A stretch of 11,188 nucleotides of DNA from a virus. Positions 8,333 to 10,892 of the stretch are shown here, in pieces (the stretch's first letter is position 1; each line of letters opens with the position of its first letter). Under the pieces are notes generated by a model. It did not search any database. It worked only from the letters and a program-made list of their open reading frames with translations, and was not told the origin of the DNA. The DNA lies in IMG/VR virus record IMGVR_UViG_3300018019_000494. One strand, written 5' to 3'. The translations under genes and the position numbers were made by a program.

Positions 8333-8408
8333 AGGGGAGTAAGATAACCGGCAGTCGGTCGGTCTCCAAAACCGTACAGTGGCGGTTCAAATCCGTCCTC
8401 CCCTGCCA
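8333..8408 (+). tRNA. tRNA-Trp(CCA), 76 nt, CCA encoded
   Basis: Manual cloverleaf: acceptor AGGGGAG/CTCCCCT, U8, A14, G18G19, U33, anticodon CCA, T-loop TTCAAAT, G53-C61. The D-stem first pair and the 27-43 pair are weak (A/G, U/U). Confidence 0.7.
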
Positions 8409-8442
8409 AAGTTTTTGAAAGGAAAGTAGTTACAAGTTCTAT

Positions 8443-8519
8443 GGTGGCGGTCGTCTAGCGGCTAAGACACCTGACTGTGGATCAGGATAGCATGGGTCCG
8501 AATCCCATTCGCCACCCCA
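8443..8519 (+). tRNA. tRNA-His(GUG) with encoded G-1 and C73
   Basis: Acceptor GTGGCGG/TCGCCAC, G-1 at 8443 pairing with C73, perfect D and anticodon stems, loop CTGTGGA. The T-loop TCCGAAT has C at position 55. Confidence 0.8.
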
Positions 8520-8538
8520 ATTTTGAGGAGAGACGTTG

Positions 8539-8614
8539 GTCCGTGTAGCTCAGAAGGAAGAGCACCACGCTCCGAACGTGGAGGTCGCGAGTCCGAGTCT
8601 CGCCATGGACACCA
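8539..8614 (+). tRNA. tRNA-Arg(CCG)
   Basis: Acceptor GTCCGTG/CATGGAC, D-stem GCTC/GAGC, anticodon loop CTCCGAA, T-arm GCGAG-TCCGAGT-CTCGC (C55). Confidence 0.8.
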
Positions 8615-8618
8615 GTTT

Positions 8619-8825
8619 ATGATGACGTTCACGATCAGCGACGAGAAGGCGGCGCAGTACAAGGCGTGGAGCGAAGAGCACCGGAAGACGTGCGGGGCGC
8701 GACCGGATATGAGCATGGCCCTGTACAGCTTCGTGTTCACGCCGAACGGTCTTGGGGACGGCATATCGGTCAAATGCCCCTGCGGCGAGAGGGTATTCCT
8801 CGACGCCGGGGACGAGGATTTATAG
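8619..8825 (+). CDS. Small Cys-containing protein, 68 aa (MMTFTISDEKAAQYKAWSEEHRKTCG...CPCGERVF), located between tRNA genes
   Basis: Very high GC3. It starts 5 nt after tRNA-Arg(CCG) and its stop abuts the next tRNA (8826). The listed longer ORF 8523.. runs through two tRNAs and is rejected. Confidence 0.6.
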   Translation: MMTFTISDEKAAQYKAWSEEHRKTCGARPDMSMALYSFVFTPNGLGDGISVKCPCGERVFLDAGDEDL

Positions 8826-8903
8826 GCGCGTGTAGCTCAGCCGGAATAGAGCGCTATTCTGCGAAGATAGAGGTCGGCGGTCCGAGTCCGCCCATGCGCA
8901 CCA
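8826..8903 (+). tRNA. tRNA-Arg(GCG)
   Basis: Acceptor GCGCGTG/CATGCGC, D-arm GCTC-AGCCGGAATA-GAGC, anticodon loop CTGCGAA (stem with one G-U pair), T-arm GGCGG-TCCGAGT-CCGCC (C55). Confidence 0.75.
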
Positions 8904-8911
8904 AGTTTTTT

Positions 8912-8989
8912 GCCGGGCTAGCCATTGGACATGGCGGCACGCCTTCGAAACGTGCACGTTTGCGGGTTCGAATCCCGCGCCCGGTTCCA
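8912..8989 (+). tRNA. tRNA-Arg(UCG)-like with a non-canonical anticodon arm (9-nt loop CCTTCGAAA, or a 7-nt loop closed by a C/A mismatch)
   Basis: Acceptor GCCGGGC/GCCCGGT (G1-U72), T-arm GCGGG-TTCGAAT-CCCGC, anticodon stem GCACG/CGTGC. The anticodon assignment TCG is inferred from U33 placement. Followed by a T8 run. Confidence 0.55.
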
Positions 8990-8999
8990 GGTTTTTTTT

Positions 9000-9077
9000 G
9001 CGCCCGTAGCTCAGCGGAATAAGAGCATTGGTCTACGAAACCAAGGGTCGCGTGTTCGAATCACGCCGGGCGCACCA
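9000..9077 (+). tRNA. tRNA-Arg(ACG)
   Basis: Acceptor GCGCCCG/CGGGCGC, D-arm GCTC-AGCGGAATAA-GAGC, anticodon loop CTACGAA with a perfect stem, T-arm GCGTG-TTCGAAT-CACGC. Confidence 0.85.
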
Positions 9078-9081
9078 ACAT

Positions 9082-9168
9082 TGAGGTGTAGGGGAATCGG
9101 TAGACCCACCTGGCTGTTACCCAGGAGCCGAAAGGCACTTGCAGGTTCGAAGCCTGCCGCCTCAGCCA
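9082..9168 (+). tRNA. Atypical 87-nt class-II-like tRNA: Leu-like D-arm (GGG-GAATCGGTAGA-CCC), long variable arm, but anticodon GUU (Asn), U1-A72 and G73
   Basis: Acceptor TGAGGTG/CGCCTCA, perfect anticodon stem CCTGG/CCAGG with loop CTGTTAC, variable arm AGCCGAAAGGCACTT, T-arm GCAGG-TTCGAAG-CCTGC, CCA encoded. Confidence 0.55.
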
Positions 9169-9186
9169 GTTTAGAGGGAGGATTCA

Positions 9187-9453
9187 TTGAGACAGGATGC
9201 TCCAGAGATCGTCAGGATTGAAGATCGGGCGGTGCTTGAGCCACTCGCCCAGCGCGGCCTGGCGGCCCACGGGCGGCTGCGGGCCGCACGCGCAGCCCTG
9301 GTCGAAGCGCAGCGGGCGGAAATCGCCGCAGAGCAGGCGGTCGCTCAGGCGGAGCGGGGATTCGCCGCCGCGAACCGGGAGATCGTCGGCGCGGGGTACC
9401 ACGACACGGGGCACGTCGTGGGCTACCTTGAGAAAAGTTCCGTTCCTCGGTAG
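9187..9453 (+). CDS. Hypothetical Ala/Arg-rich helical protein, 88 aa, TTG start
   Basis: GAGGGAGG RBS 5 nt before TTG 9187. High GC3. The stop codon lies inside the first 10 nt of tRNA-Asn. Confidence 0.5.
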   Translation: MRQDAPEIVRIEDRAVLEPLAQRGLAAHGRLRAARAALVEAQRAEIAAEQAVAQAERGFAAANREIVGAGYHDTGHVVGYLEKSSVPR

Positions 9454-9518
9454 CTCAATGGCAGAGCATTCGGCTGTTAACCGAAGGGTTGAGTGTTCGA
9501 GTCACTCCCGAGGAGCCA
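9444..9518 (+). tRNA. tRNA-Asn(GUU), canonical, U1-A72, G73
   Basis: Acceptor TCCTCGG/CCGAGGA, D-stem GCTC/GAGC, anticodon loop CTGTTAA with a perfect stem, T-arm GAGTG-TTCGAGT-CACTC. Confidence 0.85.
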
Positions 9519-9523
9519 AGTTT

Positions 9524-9598
9524 GGGTCTGTAATTCAGCGGCTAGAAGCCCTCGCTCTTAACGAGGTAACGAGAGTTCGAGTCTCTCCAGACCCACCA
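9524..9598 (+). tRNA. tRNA-Lys(CUU), copy 1
   Basis: Acceptor GGGTCTG/CAGACCC, A73, anticodon stem CCTCG/CGAGG, loop CTCTTAA, T-arm GAGAG-TTCGAGT-CTCTC. The D-stem has one A/G mismatch. Confidence 0.75.
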
Positions 9599-9618
9599 GG
9601 CATCTGATAGAATAGGGC

Positions 9619-10020
9619 ATGAACAAGAAAGCTCAAGGCACTCGGTCAGTCGGTGCGGTGATGAGCCACTTCATCAAAGCAGGCAAAATCGTCTTGATGC
9701 CGATTGGAGACAATGAGCGATACGATTTCGTCATTGATGAGGATGGGCGGTTTCGGCGTATTCAAGTCAAAACGGGCAAGGTCAAGAACGGAGCGATAGA
9801 GTTTAGTACCGCCAGCACTAATCTTGAAAACGGTAAGTGGGTGAGACACGGTTATAGGGGACAGATTGACGATTTCGCAGTTTACTGCCCTAAACTCGAC
9901 AAGGTTTACCTTGTGCCTATAGACGAAGCAGGTGGTCAGACACACTGTTCTTTGCGGCTTGAGCCAGCGAAGAACGGTCAACAAAAGGGCATTAGGCTGG
10001 CTGAGCAGTACGAGGTTTAG
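9619..10020 (+). CDS. PD-(D/E)xK-fold nuclease-like protein (Hjc/YraN-UPF0102-like), 133 aa, with foreign composition
   Basis: GC is about 50% and GC3 about 55%, versus about 85% GC3 in the flanking genes. The pattern G..G...FIKAGKIVL...DFVID-x7-RIQVKTGK resembles the core of YraN/Hjc-like nucleases. Its stop codon shares its last base with tRNA-Lys copy 2. Confidence 0.6.
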   Translation: MNKKAQGTRSVGAVMSHFIKAGKIVLMPIGDNERYDFVIDEDGRFRRIQVKTGKVKNGAIEFSTASTNLENGKWVRHGYRGQIDDFAVYCPKLDKVYLVPIDEAGGQTHCSLRLEPAKNGQQKGIRLAEQYEV

Positions 10021-10095
10021 GGCTACTAACTCAACTGGTAGAGTAGCAGACTCTTAATCTGCGAGTTCGGGGTTCGAGTCCCCGGTGGCCCACCA
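10020..10095 (+). tRNA. tRNA-Lys(CUU), copy 2, with a different sequence from copy 1
   Basis: Acceptor GGGCTAC/GTGGCCC, D-arm ACTC-AACTGGTA-GAGT, anticodon stem GCAGA/TCTGC, loop CTCTTAA, T-arm CGGGG-TTCGAGT-CCCCG, A73. Confidence 0.8.
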
Positions 10096-10134
10096 AGTTT
10101 CCGGGTATTAGAACTCTTAGGATAGGAGGTCAGC

Positions 10135-10680
10135 ATGCCCGACGTACTGGTTCTCGACATGAACTACCGCCCTGTCGGCTTCAAGTCCTGGCAGGACGCG
10201 ATCACGAACGTGTGGAAGGAGCGGGCCATCGTCGTCAAGGAGGACGAGTCCGGCCTGAAGCTCCACTCCCCGTCGTTCGAGGTCGGGATGCCGAGGGTGA
10301 TCCGCGTGCGCAACGCCTGGGTGAAGCGGCGCAAGACATCCGTGCCGTTCTCGCGGCGCAACCTGTACGTCCGCGACGGCGGCGAGTGCCAGTACTGCGG
10401 TAGGCACCTCAAGCTGGAGGAGTACACCCTCGATCACGTGATCCCGCGTTCGCAGGGCGGCGTGAGTTCGTGGGTCAACATGGTCCTCGCCTGCATGCGC
10501 TGCAACAAGCACAAGGCGGGCCGGACGCCGCAGCAGGCAGGGATGCCCCTCCTGCACAAGCCCGTCGTCCCGAAGGTGGACGACCCGAAGTACAACTTCA
10601 AGCTCCACATCCGCAAGATGCGGCCCGAGTGGAAAGAATGGGAGAATTTCCTTTACTGGAATATCGAGCTTGACGAGTAG
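10135..10680 (+). CDS. HNH endonuclease, 181 aa
   Basis: TAGGAGGT RBS. Motifs CQYCG...LDHVIPRSQGG...N...CMRCNKHK (the HNH zinc-finger core). Confidence 0.8.
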   Translation: MPDVLVLDMNYRPVGFKSWQDAITNVWKERAIVVKEDESGLKLHSPSFEVGMPRVIRVRNAWVKRRKTSVPFSRRNLYVRDGGECQYCGRHLKLEEYTLDHVIPRSQGGVSSWVNMVLACMRCNKHKAGRTPQQAGMPLLHKPVVPKVDDPKYNFKLHIRKMRPEWKEWENFLYWNIELDE

Positions 10681-10694
10681 ATCAAGCGACAAGC

Positions 10695-10718
10695 CCCGGA
10701 GGAGCAACCCTCCTCCGG
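10695..10718 (+). terminator. Strong GC hairpin (CCCGGAGGAG-CAAC-CTCCTCCGGG) without a good U-tract; a possible terminator or processing/stability element
   Basis: Perfect 10-bp stem, 14 nt after the HNH stop and 9 nt before tRNA-Arg(CCU). Confidence 0.35.
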
Positions 10719-10727
10719 GCGAAATTT

Positions 10728-10805
10728 GGCCCCGTAGCTCAGCGGAATAAGAGCGACGCACTCCTAACGCGTAGGTCACTGGTCCGAATCCAGTCGGGGT
10801 CACCA
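10728..10805 (+). tRNA. tRNA-Arg(CCU)
   Basis: Acceptor GGCCCCG/CGGGGTC, D-arm identical to that of Arg(ACG), anticodon loop CTCCTAA with an A31/C39 mismatch, T-arm ACTGG-TCCGAAT-CCAGT (C55). Confidence 0.7.
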
Positions 10806-10818
10806 ATTTTTGAGTTGT

Positions 10819-10892
10819 TGCCTCCTCGTCCAACGGTAGGACACGGGTCTCTGGAACCCGGTATCGCGGTTCGAATCCTCGGGAGGCAGCCA
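10819..10892 (+). tRNA. tRNA-Gln(CUG), U1-A72, G73
   Basis: Acceptor TGCCTCC/GGAGGCA, D-arm GTCC-AACGGTA-GGAC, anticodon stem CGGGT/ACCCG, loop CTCTGGA, T-loop TTCGAAT (the T-stem has one C/U mismatch). Confidence 0.75.

Follow-up and report, generated by a model that had tools for sequence, protein, structure and literature searches.

A putative attenuation leader in front of a conserved phage tRNA array

The window, which is the whole 11,188-nucleotide stretch of viral DNA analyzed here (IMG/VR record IMGVR_UViG_3300018019_000494), carries twelve tRNA genes, and the region directly in front of them (8124-8332) probably has the anatomy of ribosome-mediated attenuation, here governing tRNA genes. 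This leader and its terminator are our main new result, for which all the evidence is computational, and they suggest that the functional unit begins upstream of tRNA-Trp, at about 8124, with a promoter, a leader ORF and a terminator. Taken jointly with this switch, it seems likely on balance, though by no means certain, that the array members are working decoder tRNAs of one conserved operon and that its owner is an uncultured huge-phage clade of soil or peat. If this is true, a switch that responds to tRNA shortage would allow a direct test of the long-standing question why tRNA genes occur in phages.

The tRNA array

A first-pass annotation had proposed twelve tRNA genes at 8333-10892, including five Arg anticodons (CCG, GCG, UCG, ACG and CCU). 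ARAGORN found 12/12 genes on the + strand with exactly these limits, and all five Arg anticodons among them. The eleven genes named in that annotation stand, and a second Asn-GUU gene (9082-9168), left out of its list, has to be added. The ARAGORN calls are given below in gene order, with their scores against the Rfam tRNA model.

8333..8408, + strand, tRNA-Trp (CCA), 50.6 bits
8444..8519, + strand, tRNA-His (GUG), 57.8 bits
8539..8614, + strand, tRNA-Arg (CCG), 64.4 bits, C55 in the T-loop
8826..8903, + strand, tRNA-Arg (GCG), 58.7 bits, C55
8912..8989, + strand, tRNA-Arg (UCG), below the Rfam threshold
9000..9077, + strand, tRNA-Arg (ACG), 65.8 bits
9082..9168, + strand, tRNA-Asn (GUU), 87 nt, 51.1 bits
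9444..9518, + strand, tRNA-Asn (GUU), canonical, 68.1 bits
9524..9598, + strand, tRNA-Lys (CUU) copy 1, 61.3 bits
10020..10095, + strand, tRNA-Lys (CUU) copy 2, 63.7 bits
10728..10805, + strand, tRNA-Arg (CCU), 57.1 bits, C55, A31.C39 mismatch
10819..10892, + strand, tRNA-Gln (CUG), 49.4 bits

The gathering score of the Rfam model is passed by 11/12 genes (49-68 bits). All array tRNAs encode CCA, C35 is retained in the Arg tRNAs, and inspection of their D-loops suggests that A20 is retained as well. Of the 12 anticodon loops, 11 have the canonical form C32 U33 NNN R37 A38. A thirteenth gene, Lys-UUU, lies ~145 nt beyond the window end, as read on the identical contig L007; the contigs to which the window is identical come from peat metagenomes.

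tRNA-His has an encoded G-1 (position 8443), C73 as discriminator and C55 in its T-loop. The 87-nt tRNA-Asn has C38 and a long extra variable arm (GCC-GAAA-GGC), which is unusual; its counterparts in the relatives L024 and L054 carry the same arm, with compensatory changes within it. Identity is 60% between the two Asn genes and 64% between the two Lys-CUU copies. tRNA-Arg (UCG), whose top Rfam match is the tRNA-Sec model (28.5 bits), is atypical (G1.U72, U73, U14 and a C31.A39 mismatch), and it is kept across seven lineages, 10 of its 17 pairs showing compensatory changes. The co-occurrence of Arg GCG and ACG was described as unusual for bacteria, in agreement with the literature, where CGN decoding in most bacteria uses ICG and CCG tRNAs only (PMC3711424). 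The GCG Arg anticodon is rare among bacteria. Compensatory changes in tRNA-Arg (GCG) are seen in 8 of 21 pairs (6 lineages) and its anticodon loop is invariant in 5/6 lineages, L021 having G32; the gene shares 73-75% identity with Arg-CCG and Arg-ACG.

Seven diverged relatives, with contigs of 27-894 kb, have the array in near-identical order (kept in L020, L021, L022, L024, L025 and L054, partial in L027). Since order and anticodons are still kept in relatives whose flanking protein is just 57-69% identical, the array is not a chance assembly, and its presence in seven diverged relatives marks it as an old block of the huge-phage "translation island". Orthologous tRNAs are 63-95% identical, as against 51-75% for paralogous ones, and related arrays carry additional Phe, Met, Pro or Cys tRNAs. 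We found nothing for the actinobacterial host that had been presumed; the TTGACA/TAnnnT promoter and the closest cultured-phage homologues, from phages of Bordetella, Burkholderia and Pseudomonas, point elsewhere, weakly.

The leader and its terminator

8124..8152, + strand, sigma-70-type promoter, TTGACA, 17 nt, TATCTT (scan score 10/12)
8168..8269, + strand, leader ORF of 33 codons plus stop, MTSRKPNTIARKGASQWRNRHSGAGLFSDGWDG (ORF in 8 lineages)
8214..8231, + strand, hairpin AGUGGCG-GAAU-CGCCAUU within the sensor codons (MFE fold)
8232..8251, + strand, region 2, predicted antiterminator 5' strand, core GGCGCGGGUCUG (alignment, folding)
8286..8332, + strand, intrinsic terminator (folding in every lineage), with region 3 at 8286-8305 and loop at 8306-8309
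8310-8320, + strand, terminator region 4, followed by the U-run at 8321-8332

In the six-lineage alignment the -35 element TTGACAG is invariant and the -10 element holds TAnnnT; the promoter is also found in L054. At ~9-17 nt the 5' UTR would be very short, and how well the Shine-Dalgarno sequence matches varies. No indel in the leader ORF among close relatives breaks the frame (+3 nt in L025, -9 nt in L022), and between the window and L021 the first 21 codons differ only synonymously.

The array comprises ten decoding classes (UGG, CAY, CGG, CGY, CGA, AGG, AAY, AAG, AAA and CAG). The leader draws on them with AGG, AAA, AAC, CGA, AAG, CAG, TGG, CGG, AAT, CGC and CAT, and its codons 3-20 contain at least one codon for each class. 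Three leaders, those of the window, L022 and L025, cover 10/10 classes, and the remaining five cover 9/10; the Monte Carlo P is ~1e-4 for the window and 1e-5 to 1e-2 across lineages, the eight leader lineages being related and not independent. Among the small ORFs of the window only the leader ORF reaches 10/10, and at least 9/10 is reached by ~1-2% of small ORFs in the six-frame set from G+C-rich DNA. The four Arg residues of the leader belong to four different decoding classes (P ~0.02 from codon frequencies), CGA (0.3% of codons) is kept in 7/8 leaders, and none of the leaders lacks the minor codons AAU and CAU. Five leaders are without an AGG or CGA codon despite the cognate tRNA in the array, and Arg-UCU of L025 and Cys-GCA of L054 have no corresponding leader codons. 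In the distant L027 a look-alike ORF (MTRRNPGRPGYRDQW...) adjoins the first tRNA, without a terminator. Comparison of the leader with known RNA families, including T-box and amino-acid leaders, gave no match at E<=1.

The terminator ends one base before tRNA-Trp, and across all lineages its hairpin has a dG of -18 to -24.5 kcal/mol; a simple terminator scanner missed it owing to a bulge. By inspection of the six-lineage alignment, the arms of the distal stem vary yet stay complementary. The region 2 core coincides with leader codons 22-25 (Gly-Ala-Gly-Leu), it shows no nucleotide change even at third codon positions, and the reading GGC-GNN-GGU-CUN is constant across lineages. The duplex of regions 2 and 3 (2:3) has a dG of -16.7 to -24.2 kcal/mol, which places it in the top 0.06-2.3% of 20-mers at the same loci, and its distal arms vary from lineage to lineage yet remain complementary, as with CUC:GAG in the window and CUUG:CAAG plus UUUC:GAAA in L021. 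Without region 4, regions 2 and 3 pair over 12-16 nt if there is no ribosome or if the A-site is at or before codon ~18-24, and this pairing is lost with a modelled ribosome over codons ~21-33 in all six lineages tested. The hairpin at 8214..8231 may serve as a pause hairpin for RNA polymerase, and at this site a hairpin of other sequence is present in L020 and L024.

Proposed mechanism

Based on the tRNAs, which are conserved and covary, on the conserved promoter, leader ORF and terminator, on codon content and on the alternative pairing, we infer that the leader is translated, that ribosome and polymerase are coupled and that a switch operates. Host RNA polymerase would initiate at the promoter and transcribe the leader of ~170 nt first, and a ribosome would translate the 33-codon ORF. 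When all array-class tRNAs are plentiful, the ribosome would pass region 2 and reach the stop codon, regions 3 and 4 would pair, and transcription would end at the U-run before tRNA-Trp. When any array-class tRNA is scarce, be it through low host supply, a cleaved or depleted host pool or high phage demand, the ribosome would stall upstream, 2:3 pairing would prevent the terminator and polymerase would enter the tRNA array. Newly made tRNAs would then lift the stall, as a negative feedback. Such a leader would imply a phage geared to a shortage of exactly the tRNAs in its array.

The stop codon lies ~17 nt past region 2, so termination would need the ribosome to separate regions 2 and 3 sterically. 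In equilibrium folds of the full leader the terminator persists for any ribosome placement in the window, and mostly also in relatives, so that the case for the switch is a co-transcriptional one. The truncated, untranslated RNA also folds into the antiterminator, which makes the default state uncertain and differs from the trp paradigm.

Alternative explanations

Three protein genes within or upstream of the array enter into the alternatives.

3419..4261, + strand, RlaP-family RNA-repair nucleotidyltransferase (PF10127, E 8e-19; phrog_388)
9619..10020, + strand, PD-(D/E)XK homing-endonuclease-like gene (PDDEXK_5, E 3e-37; PDB 2OST; PADLOC 'homing endonuclease')
10135..10680, + strand, HNH nuclease, 181 aa (profile matches)

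The RlaP gene belongs to the context outside the array, a few kb upstream of it in every syntenic lineage; RlaP is reported to put back nucleotides lost from nuclease-damaged tRNA (PMC7824862, PMC12776372). The PD-(D/E)XK gene, at 50% G+C, forms a local G+C dip and is a lineage-specific insertion separating the two Lys-CUU genes; the equivalent slot of relatives holds an R2K ATP-grasp gene or is empty. The HNH gene is within the array in 8/8 lineages. Homologues with 49-85% identity occur on numerous contigs of 200-894 kb, and others, with ~35-40% identity, in or beside the tRNA arrays of phages Mx1, Rctr197k and S-CBWM1.

A counter-defence role of phage tRNAs is already published (PMC10264068, PMC11555353), with experiments in which T5 tRNA-Tyr counters retron-Eco7 PtuAB and tRNA-Lys counters PrrC (PMC11555353). 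We consider it possible but doubtful that the present array is dedicated to this role, that is, that it chiefly replaces host tRNAs cut by anticodon nucleases or other tRNases, with phage copies evading cleavage via altered bodies (extra variable arm, C55, odd acceptor ends). The first-pass annotation had raised such a role, and it is favored by the non-random and long-conserved set, by the conserved RlaP upstream, by the predicted shortage sensor, by the duplicate Asn and Lys-CUU isodecoders kept with divergent bodies, and by structurally odd copies that recur across lineages. Yet these odd features are sporadic and not fixed, and the anticodon loops are canonical, whereas the published signature of nuclease evasion is mutations in the anticodon loop (PMC10264068). 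A genome scan for the host, host tRNAs or nucleases gave nothing. It also speaks against this role that the remaining colicin-E5-type targets, Tyr and Asp, are missing and that relatives add Phe, Met, Pro and Cys. Counter-defence would concern the selective pressure and is compatible with an attenuator. The tRNAs fit the codons preferred by the phage (shares: CGC.41, AGG.22, CGG.17, AAG.73, AAC.84, CAG.68, CAC.78), so that simple supply is equally consistent with the set. Supply as the whole explanation, with frequent or host-rare codons topped up without regulation, an unrelated upstream ORF and a leaky terminator, appears rather unlikely to us. It would suit the terminator that persists in full-length equilibrium folds, and, for a genome of 59% G+C, an AGG share of 22% among Arg codons is high compared with typical bacteria. 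Huge phages also commonly have many tRNAs and synthetases (PMC7162821). Against it, and in line with counter-defence, tRNA-Arg (UCG) is retained for CGA, at 0.3% of codons, and the anticodon set stays constant while usage shifts among lineages (as share of Arg codons, AGG 5 to 22% and CGA 2 to 9%). The more-used CAA (32% of Gln codons) and AGA are without a tRNA in the window array. Furthermore, a terminator this strong, ending 1 nt ahead of the first tRNA, would shut off the operon if it were not conditional, the leader codons match the array, and region 2, kept even at synonymous sites, is complementary in all lineages to the arm of the terminator.

It is very improbable that the Arg/Lys/Trp-rich leader peptide itself acts in a lambda N-like manner, binding GNRA-capped hairpins and suppressing the terminator; in an extension of this idea, it might also bind some tRNAs at their GAAA-capped extra arms. 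In favor are the basic, Trp-containing peptide, a GNRA-capped hairpin in the leader (GCCC-GAAA-GGGC, 8195-8206), GAAA-capped extra arms on several tRNAs of the clade, and the resemblance of peptide and hairpin to the arginine-rich motif of lambda N and boxB. However, lambda N has parts contacting NusA and polymerase, without equivalents in a leader peptide of 29-43 residues, and L022 and L054 lose the hairpin stem yet keep the CGA-AAG codons. Codon choice is moreover conserved beyond the amino acids (rare CGA, AAU and CAU; four different Arg codons), and two leader types differ greatly in peptide while the codon classes are kept. We also give very little credence to selfish accretion, in which the array is mainly landing pad and cargo of the HNH and PD-(D/E)XK homing endonucleases, maintained by inheritance that the endonucleases drive and not for a benefit of its tRNAs. 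Two endonuclease genes are indeed lodged between tRNA genes, one of them the low-G+C, lineage-specific insertion, the HNH family is tied to tRNA arrays of unrelated phages, and T4 SegB is a precedent of a homing endonuclease driving the inheritance of a tRNA region. Such accretion fits poorly with invariant anticodons and covarying stems over long divergence, with a conserved gene order behind a conserved regulatory leader, and with an HNH gene that is in a fixed position under strong purifying selection, unlike a sporadic selfish element.

Other elements of the array

8619..8825, + strand, small conserved ORF, 68 aa, Cys-rich (gene calls on identical contigs)
9187..9453, + strand, small conserved ORF, 88 aa, TTG start (codon-position pattern of substitutions)
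10900..10928, + strand, promoter-like site 2, TGGACA, 17 nt, TATAAT (scan score 11/12)

The 68-aa ORF, which gave no match in family searches, lies between Arg-CCG and Arg-GCG, where L021 and L022 also have small ORFs. The 88-aa ORF overlaps the first 10 nt of the canonical tRNA-Asn (9444); compared with L021 and L022, its substitutions fall mainly at third codon positions, and L021 has an ATG at the same start site; a GGAGGA precedes the start. The second promoter-like site falls after the last tRNA of the window.

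Organization and conservation of the tRNA array

The tRNA array is real and conserved. ARAGORN places the first gene, tRNA-Trp, at 8333-8408 and the last, tRNA-Gln, at 10819-10892, exactly the limits that the first-pass annotation had claimed, and its count of twelve genes also holds, although its itemised list sums to 11 with the second tRNA-Asn omitted. On the + strand the order is Trp-CCA, His-GUG, Arg-CCG, Arg-GCG, Arg-UCG, Arg-ACG, Asn-GUU (87 nt), Asn-GUU, Lys-CUU, Lys-CUU, Arg-CCU and Gln-CUG, and a thirteenth gene, Lys-UUU, is found on an identical contig ~145 nt beyond the window end. 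Eleven of the twelve genes score 49-68 bits with the Rfam tRNA model RF00005, above its gathering score of 29 bits; Arg-UCG, which ARAGORN calls, stays below the Rfam tRNA threshold and has its best score, 28.5 bits, to the tRNA-Sec model. The 3' CCA is encoded in all twelve genes, and the tRNA-His gene also encodes G-1, facing C73. Canonical anticodon loops are seen throughout: CU-NNN-AA in 9/12, with G37 in the His and Gln genes and C38 in one of the Asn genes. The ArgRS identity elements in E. coli are C35 and A20. C35 is present in all five Arg tRNAs and A20 is apparently kept, as an A after G18-G19 in the D-loops when the Arg-GCG and Arg-UCG alignments are inspected by eye; by these elements the Arg genes would carry tRNA-Arg identity for ArgRS.

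Paralogous tRNAs inside the window share 51-75% identity and orthologues across lineages 63-95%. In the aligned diverged orthologues, compensatory pairs were found at 8 of 21 positions in Arg-GCG, 10 of 17 in Arg-UCG and 10 of 22 in the long-arm Asn, and the anticodons are unchanged across 6-8 lineages. This combination of stem covariation and anticodon-loop conservation indicates functional decoders rather than pseudogenes. The complete CGN anticodon set (ACG, GCG, UCG, CCG) is unusual and is a property of this uncultured phage clade.

The window is 99.96-100% identical to fifteen metagenome contigs, the longest of which is 30.6 kb and which presumably originate from peat, as their sample identifiers suggest. 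More diverged relatives are listed below. In six of them (L020, L021, L022, L024, L025 and L054) the same array is found with its order nearly unchanged: Trp, His, Arg-CCG/GCG/UCG/ACG, Asn, Asn, two Lys-CUU, an HNH gene, Arg-CCU, Gln-CUG and Lys-UUU, with an extra Arg-UCU in L025 and an extra Cys in L054. The array of L027, built around the same HNH gene, contains six Arg, Asn, Lys, Phe, two Met, three Pro, Gln and Trp tRNAs. Upstream of the array, a vault-like (MVP) protein, RlaP and a 399-aa protein are common to the six relatives, and amid their tRNA genes are HisRS-like and ArgRS-like fragments, IF3_C and ATP-grasp genes. The synthetase-like genes and IF3_C are lost from the window lineage. 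The short HisRS-like genes (118-205 aa) adjoin tRNA-His in the relatives, and in L020 an ArgRS-like gene (tRNA-synt_1d/DALR_1) and an IF3_C gene lie amid Arg and Asn tRNAs.

Table. Diverged relatives of the window: contig size and positions of HisRS-like or synthetase-like genes
L020: 100 kb; 12397-12753 and 14149-15138
L021: 447 kb; 12443-13060
L022: 27 kb; 4656-5117
L024: 465 kb; 13090-13671
L025: 894 kb; 7169-7642
L054: 463 kb; 5772-6206
L027 (most distant): 105 kb

Given its conservation in order, orthologue identity and stem covariation, the array is an old, selected block of an apparent huge-phage translation island, like those that Al-Shayeb et al. described (PMC7162821). Like the described islands (PMC7162821; Iyer 2021, PMC7824862), the relatives combine tRNA genes with synthetase-like fragments, IF3_C and RlaP. 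Unlike them, the clade lacks near relatives among GenBank phages and in IMG/VR, the window lineage has lost its synthetase-like genes, and the array is limited to Trp, His, Arg, Asn, Lys and Gln with all four CGN anticodons. Among GenBank phages no near relative was found for array, flanks or leader, and IMG/VR returned only distant homologues of the neighbouring 399-aa protein, none with the array. This protein (phrog_10079) has no Pfam, NCBIfam, PADLOC or PDB match, and its homologues and those of the HNH protein in the array occur on contigs of 100-894 kb. The P0073 relative, on a 405-kb contig, shows no synteny. That the phage is huge we only infer, because the stretches read of the window contigs and relatives hold no structural genes. 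The signs of a phage are PHROG hits, homologues in cultured phages and, among the relatives, rIIB-like and phiTE_072 domains; by the criterion used for huge or jumbo phages, phage genes on a contig >200 kb, the window contigs are at most 30.6 kb and the syntenic relatives 436-894 kb. The closest relative of the array, L025 (Ga0374055_0000025), lies on a contig of 894,233 bp; the largest phage genome in PMC7162821, of 735 kb, is shorter.

A predicted attenuator upstream of the tRNA genes

The 210 nt that precede tRNA-Trp are conserved throughout the close lineages, and a leader identical to that of L025 was found on a 436-kb contig from another sample. The leader has the following elements:

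8124-8152: promoter, sigma-70-type
8168-8269: leader ORF, 33 codons, product MTSRKPNTIARKGASQWRNRHSGAGLFSDGWDG
8232-8251: region 2, core GGCGCGGGUCUG, codons 22-27 of the ORF
8286-8332: terminator, hairpin and U-run
8286-8305: region 3, 5' arm of the terminator
8310-8320: region 4, the other terminator arm

The -35 element, TTGACAG, is invariant. A leader ORF with an ATG start is present in eight lineages with 29-43 codons; the stretch upstream of it is purine-rich and of variable quality, and the predicted 5' UTR is short. The leader appears in this respect to have the promoter, short ORF and plausible ribosome-binding site of an attenuator. Indels in the ORF preserve the frame (+3 nt in L025, -9 nt in L022), and over the first 21 codons the window and L021 differ by synonymous substitutions. 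The leader peptides fall into two types that differ greatly, one shared by the window group and the other by L020, L024 and L035, and the same six amino acids are abundant in both.

The codon content matches the array. Ten decoding classes are served by the tRNA genes (UGG, CAY, CGG, CGY, CGA, AGG, AAY, AAG, AAA and CAG), and the window leader has at least one codon for each; the leaders of the other lineages have codons for 9-10 of the ten, the eight leader lineages being related and hence not independent. In a Monte Carlo simulation, random ORFs drawn from phage codon usage reach all ten classes with P ~1e-4. Among ORFs of 25-45 codons in the six frames of the window the leader alone does so, and at least nine classes are reached by ~1-2% of the small ORFs when these G+C-rich loci are read in six frames. 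The four Arg residues of the leader represent four different classes (P ~0.02 from phage codon frequencies), and CGA, only 0.3% of codons, is retained in 7/8 leaders. As in attenuators, the leader carries regulatory codons cognate to the genes that follow. In L027 a similar-looking ORF with many Arg and Pro codons (7108-7169, MTRRNPGRPGYRDQWTPPLD) abuts the first tRNA of an array that has three Pro tRNAs, and no terminator lies between the two.

The terminator is a strong hairpin followed by a U-run, with a dG of ~-22 kcal/mol in the window and -18 to -24.5 kcal/mol across lineages, and the distance to tRNA-Trp is 1 nt in six close lineages and ~20 nt in L054. Its pairing was judged from folds of each lineage; the MAFFT alignment displaces distal stems by one column. 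An intrinsic terminator of the attenuator type is predicted at this position, and it would shut off the operon unless it is conditional. Such a condition may be provided by region 2, which is complementary to region 3. The nucleotides of region 2 are invariant including third positions, and the distal parts of regions 2 and 3 vary between lineages with their complementarity kept. The 2:3 duplex has a dG of -16.7 to -24.2 kcal/mol, equal in stability to the terminator, and ranks in the top 0.06-2.3% among all 20-mers of the same loci. The leader stop codon is 17 nt beyond region 2. When transcripts of six lineages were truncated before region 4 and folded with a ribosome footprint, 2:3 pairing of 12-16 nt was seen in 6/6 lineages without a ribosome or with the footprint centred up to codons ~18-24, and was lost in 6/6 with the footprint over codons ~21-33. 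In equilibrium folds of the full-length RNA the terminator persists at any ribosome position and there is no clean switch; a switch would therefore depend on co-transcriptional timing. The untranslated truncated RNA is also predicted to antiterminate.

Taken together, leader and terminator have the anatomy of ribosome-mediated attenuation, and we consider it rather probable that they control the tRNA genes in this way. A ribosome stalled at a hungry codon would leave region 2 free to capture region 3, and the polymerase would enter the tRNA genes; a ribosome that reaches the stop codon would cover or separate region 2 and the terminator would form. The tRNAs made in this way would end the stall, which would complete a feedback loop. 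In this model the tRNAs would be decoders supplied on demand, whatever causes the shortage.

The general principle of ribosome-mediated attenuation has been described (PMC1183508). With the attenuators trpL, hisL, leuL, thrL, pheL and pheM (pheST) the leader shares a promoter and a short ORF with regulatory codons, a predicted alternative pairing with the 5' arm of the terminator, and a U-run before the genes. The differences are several. The regulated genes are here tRNAs and not enzymes or a synthetase, the regulatory codons cover six amino acids and ten classes with about one per isoacceptor instead of a run for a single amino acid, and the antiterminator strand is part of the ORF, with 7 codons between it and the stop, unlike in classical attenuators. 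Untranslated RNA is predicted to antiterminate, unlike in the trp leader, and the leader is phage-borne and has no match to an Rfam leader family. T-box riboswitches, as is proposed for the leader, sense tRNA status and choose between terminator and antiterminator before translation-related genes; yet they bind the uncharged tRNA themselves, by means of a specifier codon and the T-box sequence and with no ribosome, where here there is a conserved ORF. No known RNA family in Rfam matches the leader, and no T-box was found at E<=1 in 8100-11188. A pattern scan for leader and terminator gave no match in IMG/VR. In bacterial genomes it gave 7 matches, all chance terminators without tRNA or leader that therefore hold no clue to the host, and in metagenomes 18, with just four of relevance: L032, L033, L035 and L041.

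As modelled, leader and array put a known principle, attenuation, to a new use, the control of tRNA genes and of many tRNA species at once. A full-text literature search of one library gave no account of tRNA genes controlled by leader-peptide attenuation, which is not proof of novelty, and as far as the literature searched shows, no upstream attenuator is described for the arrays of T5, T4 and the cluster C1 mycobacteriophages. If the model is true, the phage treats its array tRNAs as decoders with supply matched to demand, and classical attenuation is extended to tRNA genes and to sensing of several species. For about fifty years phage tRNAs have been debated as codon compensation or as replacement of depleted host tRNAs; a compact and portable sequence of ~210 nt would make the question of their purpose testable, by asking which shortages open the gate. 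Such a multi-species leader could also serve as a synthetic sensor of tRNA availability.

Codon supply or replacement of depleted tRNAs

Codon usage was taken from 4,847 codons of an identical contig. The Arg codons are CGC.41, AGG.22, CGG.17, CGU.09, AGA.06 and CGA.05, and the preferred codons elsewhere are AAG (.73 of Lys), AAC (.84 of Asn), CAG (.68 of Gln) and CAC (.78 of His). The preferred codons of the phage are those served by the array, which favours the view that the tRNAs feed them. Still, Arg-UCG is kept though CGA is very rare, the array has no tRNA for CAA (.32 of Gln codons) or AGA, and the anticodon set stays constant while the AGG share of the relatives spans 5 to 22% and their G+C 53 to 62%. 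The first-pass annotation had proposed codon usage as a check on its own view, in which the array may be a counter-defence set; on the phage side the outcome is divided, the service of preferred codons speaking for supply and the mismatch of Arg-UCG, CAA and AGA with demand against demand alone. The counter-defence hypothesis itself is already published, with phage tRNAs replacing those depleted by host tRNases (van den Berg 2023, PMC10264068; Azam 2024, PMC11555353).

For this array the counter-defence view is partly supported. Circumstantial points in its favour are the conserved RlaP nearby, the isodecoder pairs retained with very different bodies, and the predicted shortage sensor upstream. 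RlaP (3419-4261, PF10127; profile 68.8 bits against a cut-off of 23) belongs to nucleotidyltransferases that are reported to restore nucleotides to RNA that has been damaged, and a role following anticodon-nuclease damage has been proposed for them (PMC7824862, PMC12776372); in the 20-kb stretches read of the syntenic lineages no RNA ligase lies within 10 kb of it. The arrays of T5, T4 and the C1 mycobacteriophages likewise have clustered tRNAs with interspersed small ORFs and endonuclease genes. There, however, host and nucleases are known, and loop mutations relative to host tRNAs or rescue experiments support the claim, whereas the loops of this array are canonical in themselves. Tyr and Asp, the other E5-type targets, are also missing from the array, and the related arrays contain Phe, Met, Pro or Cys.

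A stronger form of the counter-defence view would make array, leader, HNH gene and RlaP one self-contained replacement system for host Trp, His, Arg, Asn, Lys and Gln tRNAs destroyed in infection. The destroyer would be host abortive-infection tRNases or the phage's own array HNH nuclease, the leader ORF would detect the loss codon by codon and open the terminator, and the odd tRNAs, with their GAAA-capped arm, C55 and acceptor ends, would escape the nuclease and reserve translation for the phage. We regard this as very unlikely. PtuB is an effector of the HNH family, and its expression together with PtuA results in degradation of tRNA-Tyr; the HNH core of the array protein is like those of PtuB and Cas9, at the domain level only.

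Endonucleases and other genes of the region

The protein-coding genes in and around the array are:

2004-2996: vault-like protein, MVP shoulder domain
4443-4721: 92-aa protein
8619-8825 and 9187-9453: small conserved protein genes between tRNAs
9619-10020: PD-(D/E)XK gene, 50% G+C
10135-10680: HNH gene, 181 aa

The PD-(D/E)XK protein matches Pfam PDDEXK_5 (PF11645; E 2.9e-37 over residues 1-132) and PDB 2OST (E 4.7e-9), and PADLOC labels it a homing endonuclease; by sequence it is probably an I-Ssp6803I-like homing endonuclease. In the relatives its slot holds an ATP-grasp gene or nothing, and it is therefore a mobile insertion. Duplication of the Lys-CUU pair through this insertion was considered and rejected, as the two genes are only 64% identical. 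The HNH gene has a fixed position and up to 85% identity across the clade. As with the free-standing homing endonucleases of tRNA regions in phages (T4 SegB, the T5 HNH enzymes; I-Ssp6803I, PDB 2OST), HNH and PD-(D/E)XK genes sit here between tRNA genes; typical homing genes are sporadic, unlike the highly conserved HNH gene of the array, and no intron is present here. Homologues of the HNH protein with 35-40% identity lie in or beside tRNA arrays in Myxococcus phage Mx1 (L057, 5001-5546), Virus Rctr197k (L058, 4998-5546) and Synechococcus phage S-CBWM1 (L059, 3501-3941), and that of Ochrobactrum phage vB_OspM_OC is outside any tRNA array.

Between the HNH stop codon and tRNA-Arg(CCU) there is a G+C-rich hairpin without U-run (10681-10727, CCCCGGAGGAG-CAAC-CCTCCTCCGGG), which may be a processing or stability element. 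The spacer 9169-9443 was rejected as an RNA element because its substitutions follow a coding-type pattern, and for the array region Rfam gave no match to a group I intron or to a T-box, so that both were rejected. The vault-like protein and RlaP form a conserved pair upstream in most syntenic lineages read; in relatives the former has ~810 aa and a Vault_3 domain. The 92-aa protein resembles the NCBIfam 'HNH nuclease-like protein HlpB' with an E of 2e-17, short of the curated cut-off. Contigs that are otherwise identical differ in this gene: some have it, and others (L001) have a 73-aa ORF in its place.

Unusual tRNA structures

Asn, Gln, Arg, Lys and Trp tRNAs are class I in cells. Here, tRNA genes of 85-89 nt with an extra variable arm of 3-5 bp recur for Asn, Gln, Arg-CCU, Lys-UUU and Trp, at the positions below. 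Such recurrent class-II-shaped Asn, Gln, Lys, Trp and Arg tRNAs are also an unusual property of the clade.

Table. tRNA genes with a long variable arm
Window: 9082-9168
L020: 18468-18555
L024: 15067-15151
L027: 9214-9302
L054: 7194-7280, 7630-7717, 11227-11314
L059 (Synechococcus phage S-CBWM1): 5100-5185

The extra arms are mostly capped by GAAA or UUAA, with six-nucleotide loops in L020 and L027. That of Asn shows compensatory changes over three lineages, and the same kind of long-arm tRNA-Asn is found in a cultured cyanophage, Synechococcus phage S-CBWM1.

In 5/13 tRNAs of the window lineage C55 replaces the near-universal U55 of the T-loop (TCCGA): at 8444-8519, 8539-8614, 8826-8903 and 10728-10805 in the window and at 9109-9183 in L007, an identical contig. 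The relatives have 0-3 such genes each, in different tRNAs; these substitutions are parallel changes, in stems of unrelated sequence. tRNA-Arg(UCG) (8912-8989) has G1.U72, U14, a 7-nt variable loop and the pyrimidine discriminator U73, the discriminator being U or C in 5/7 lineages; it is kept with covariation in spite of its sub-threshold Rfam score. A tRNA-Leu normally has a long variable arm. Several tRNA-Leu genes in phage Mx1 (L057) and Rctr197k (L058) are only 73-76 nt long and have no such arm, which is the converse oddity to the long-arm tRNA-Asn.
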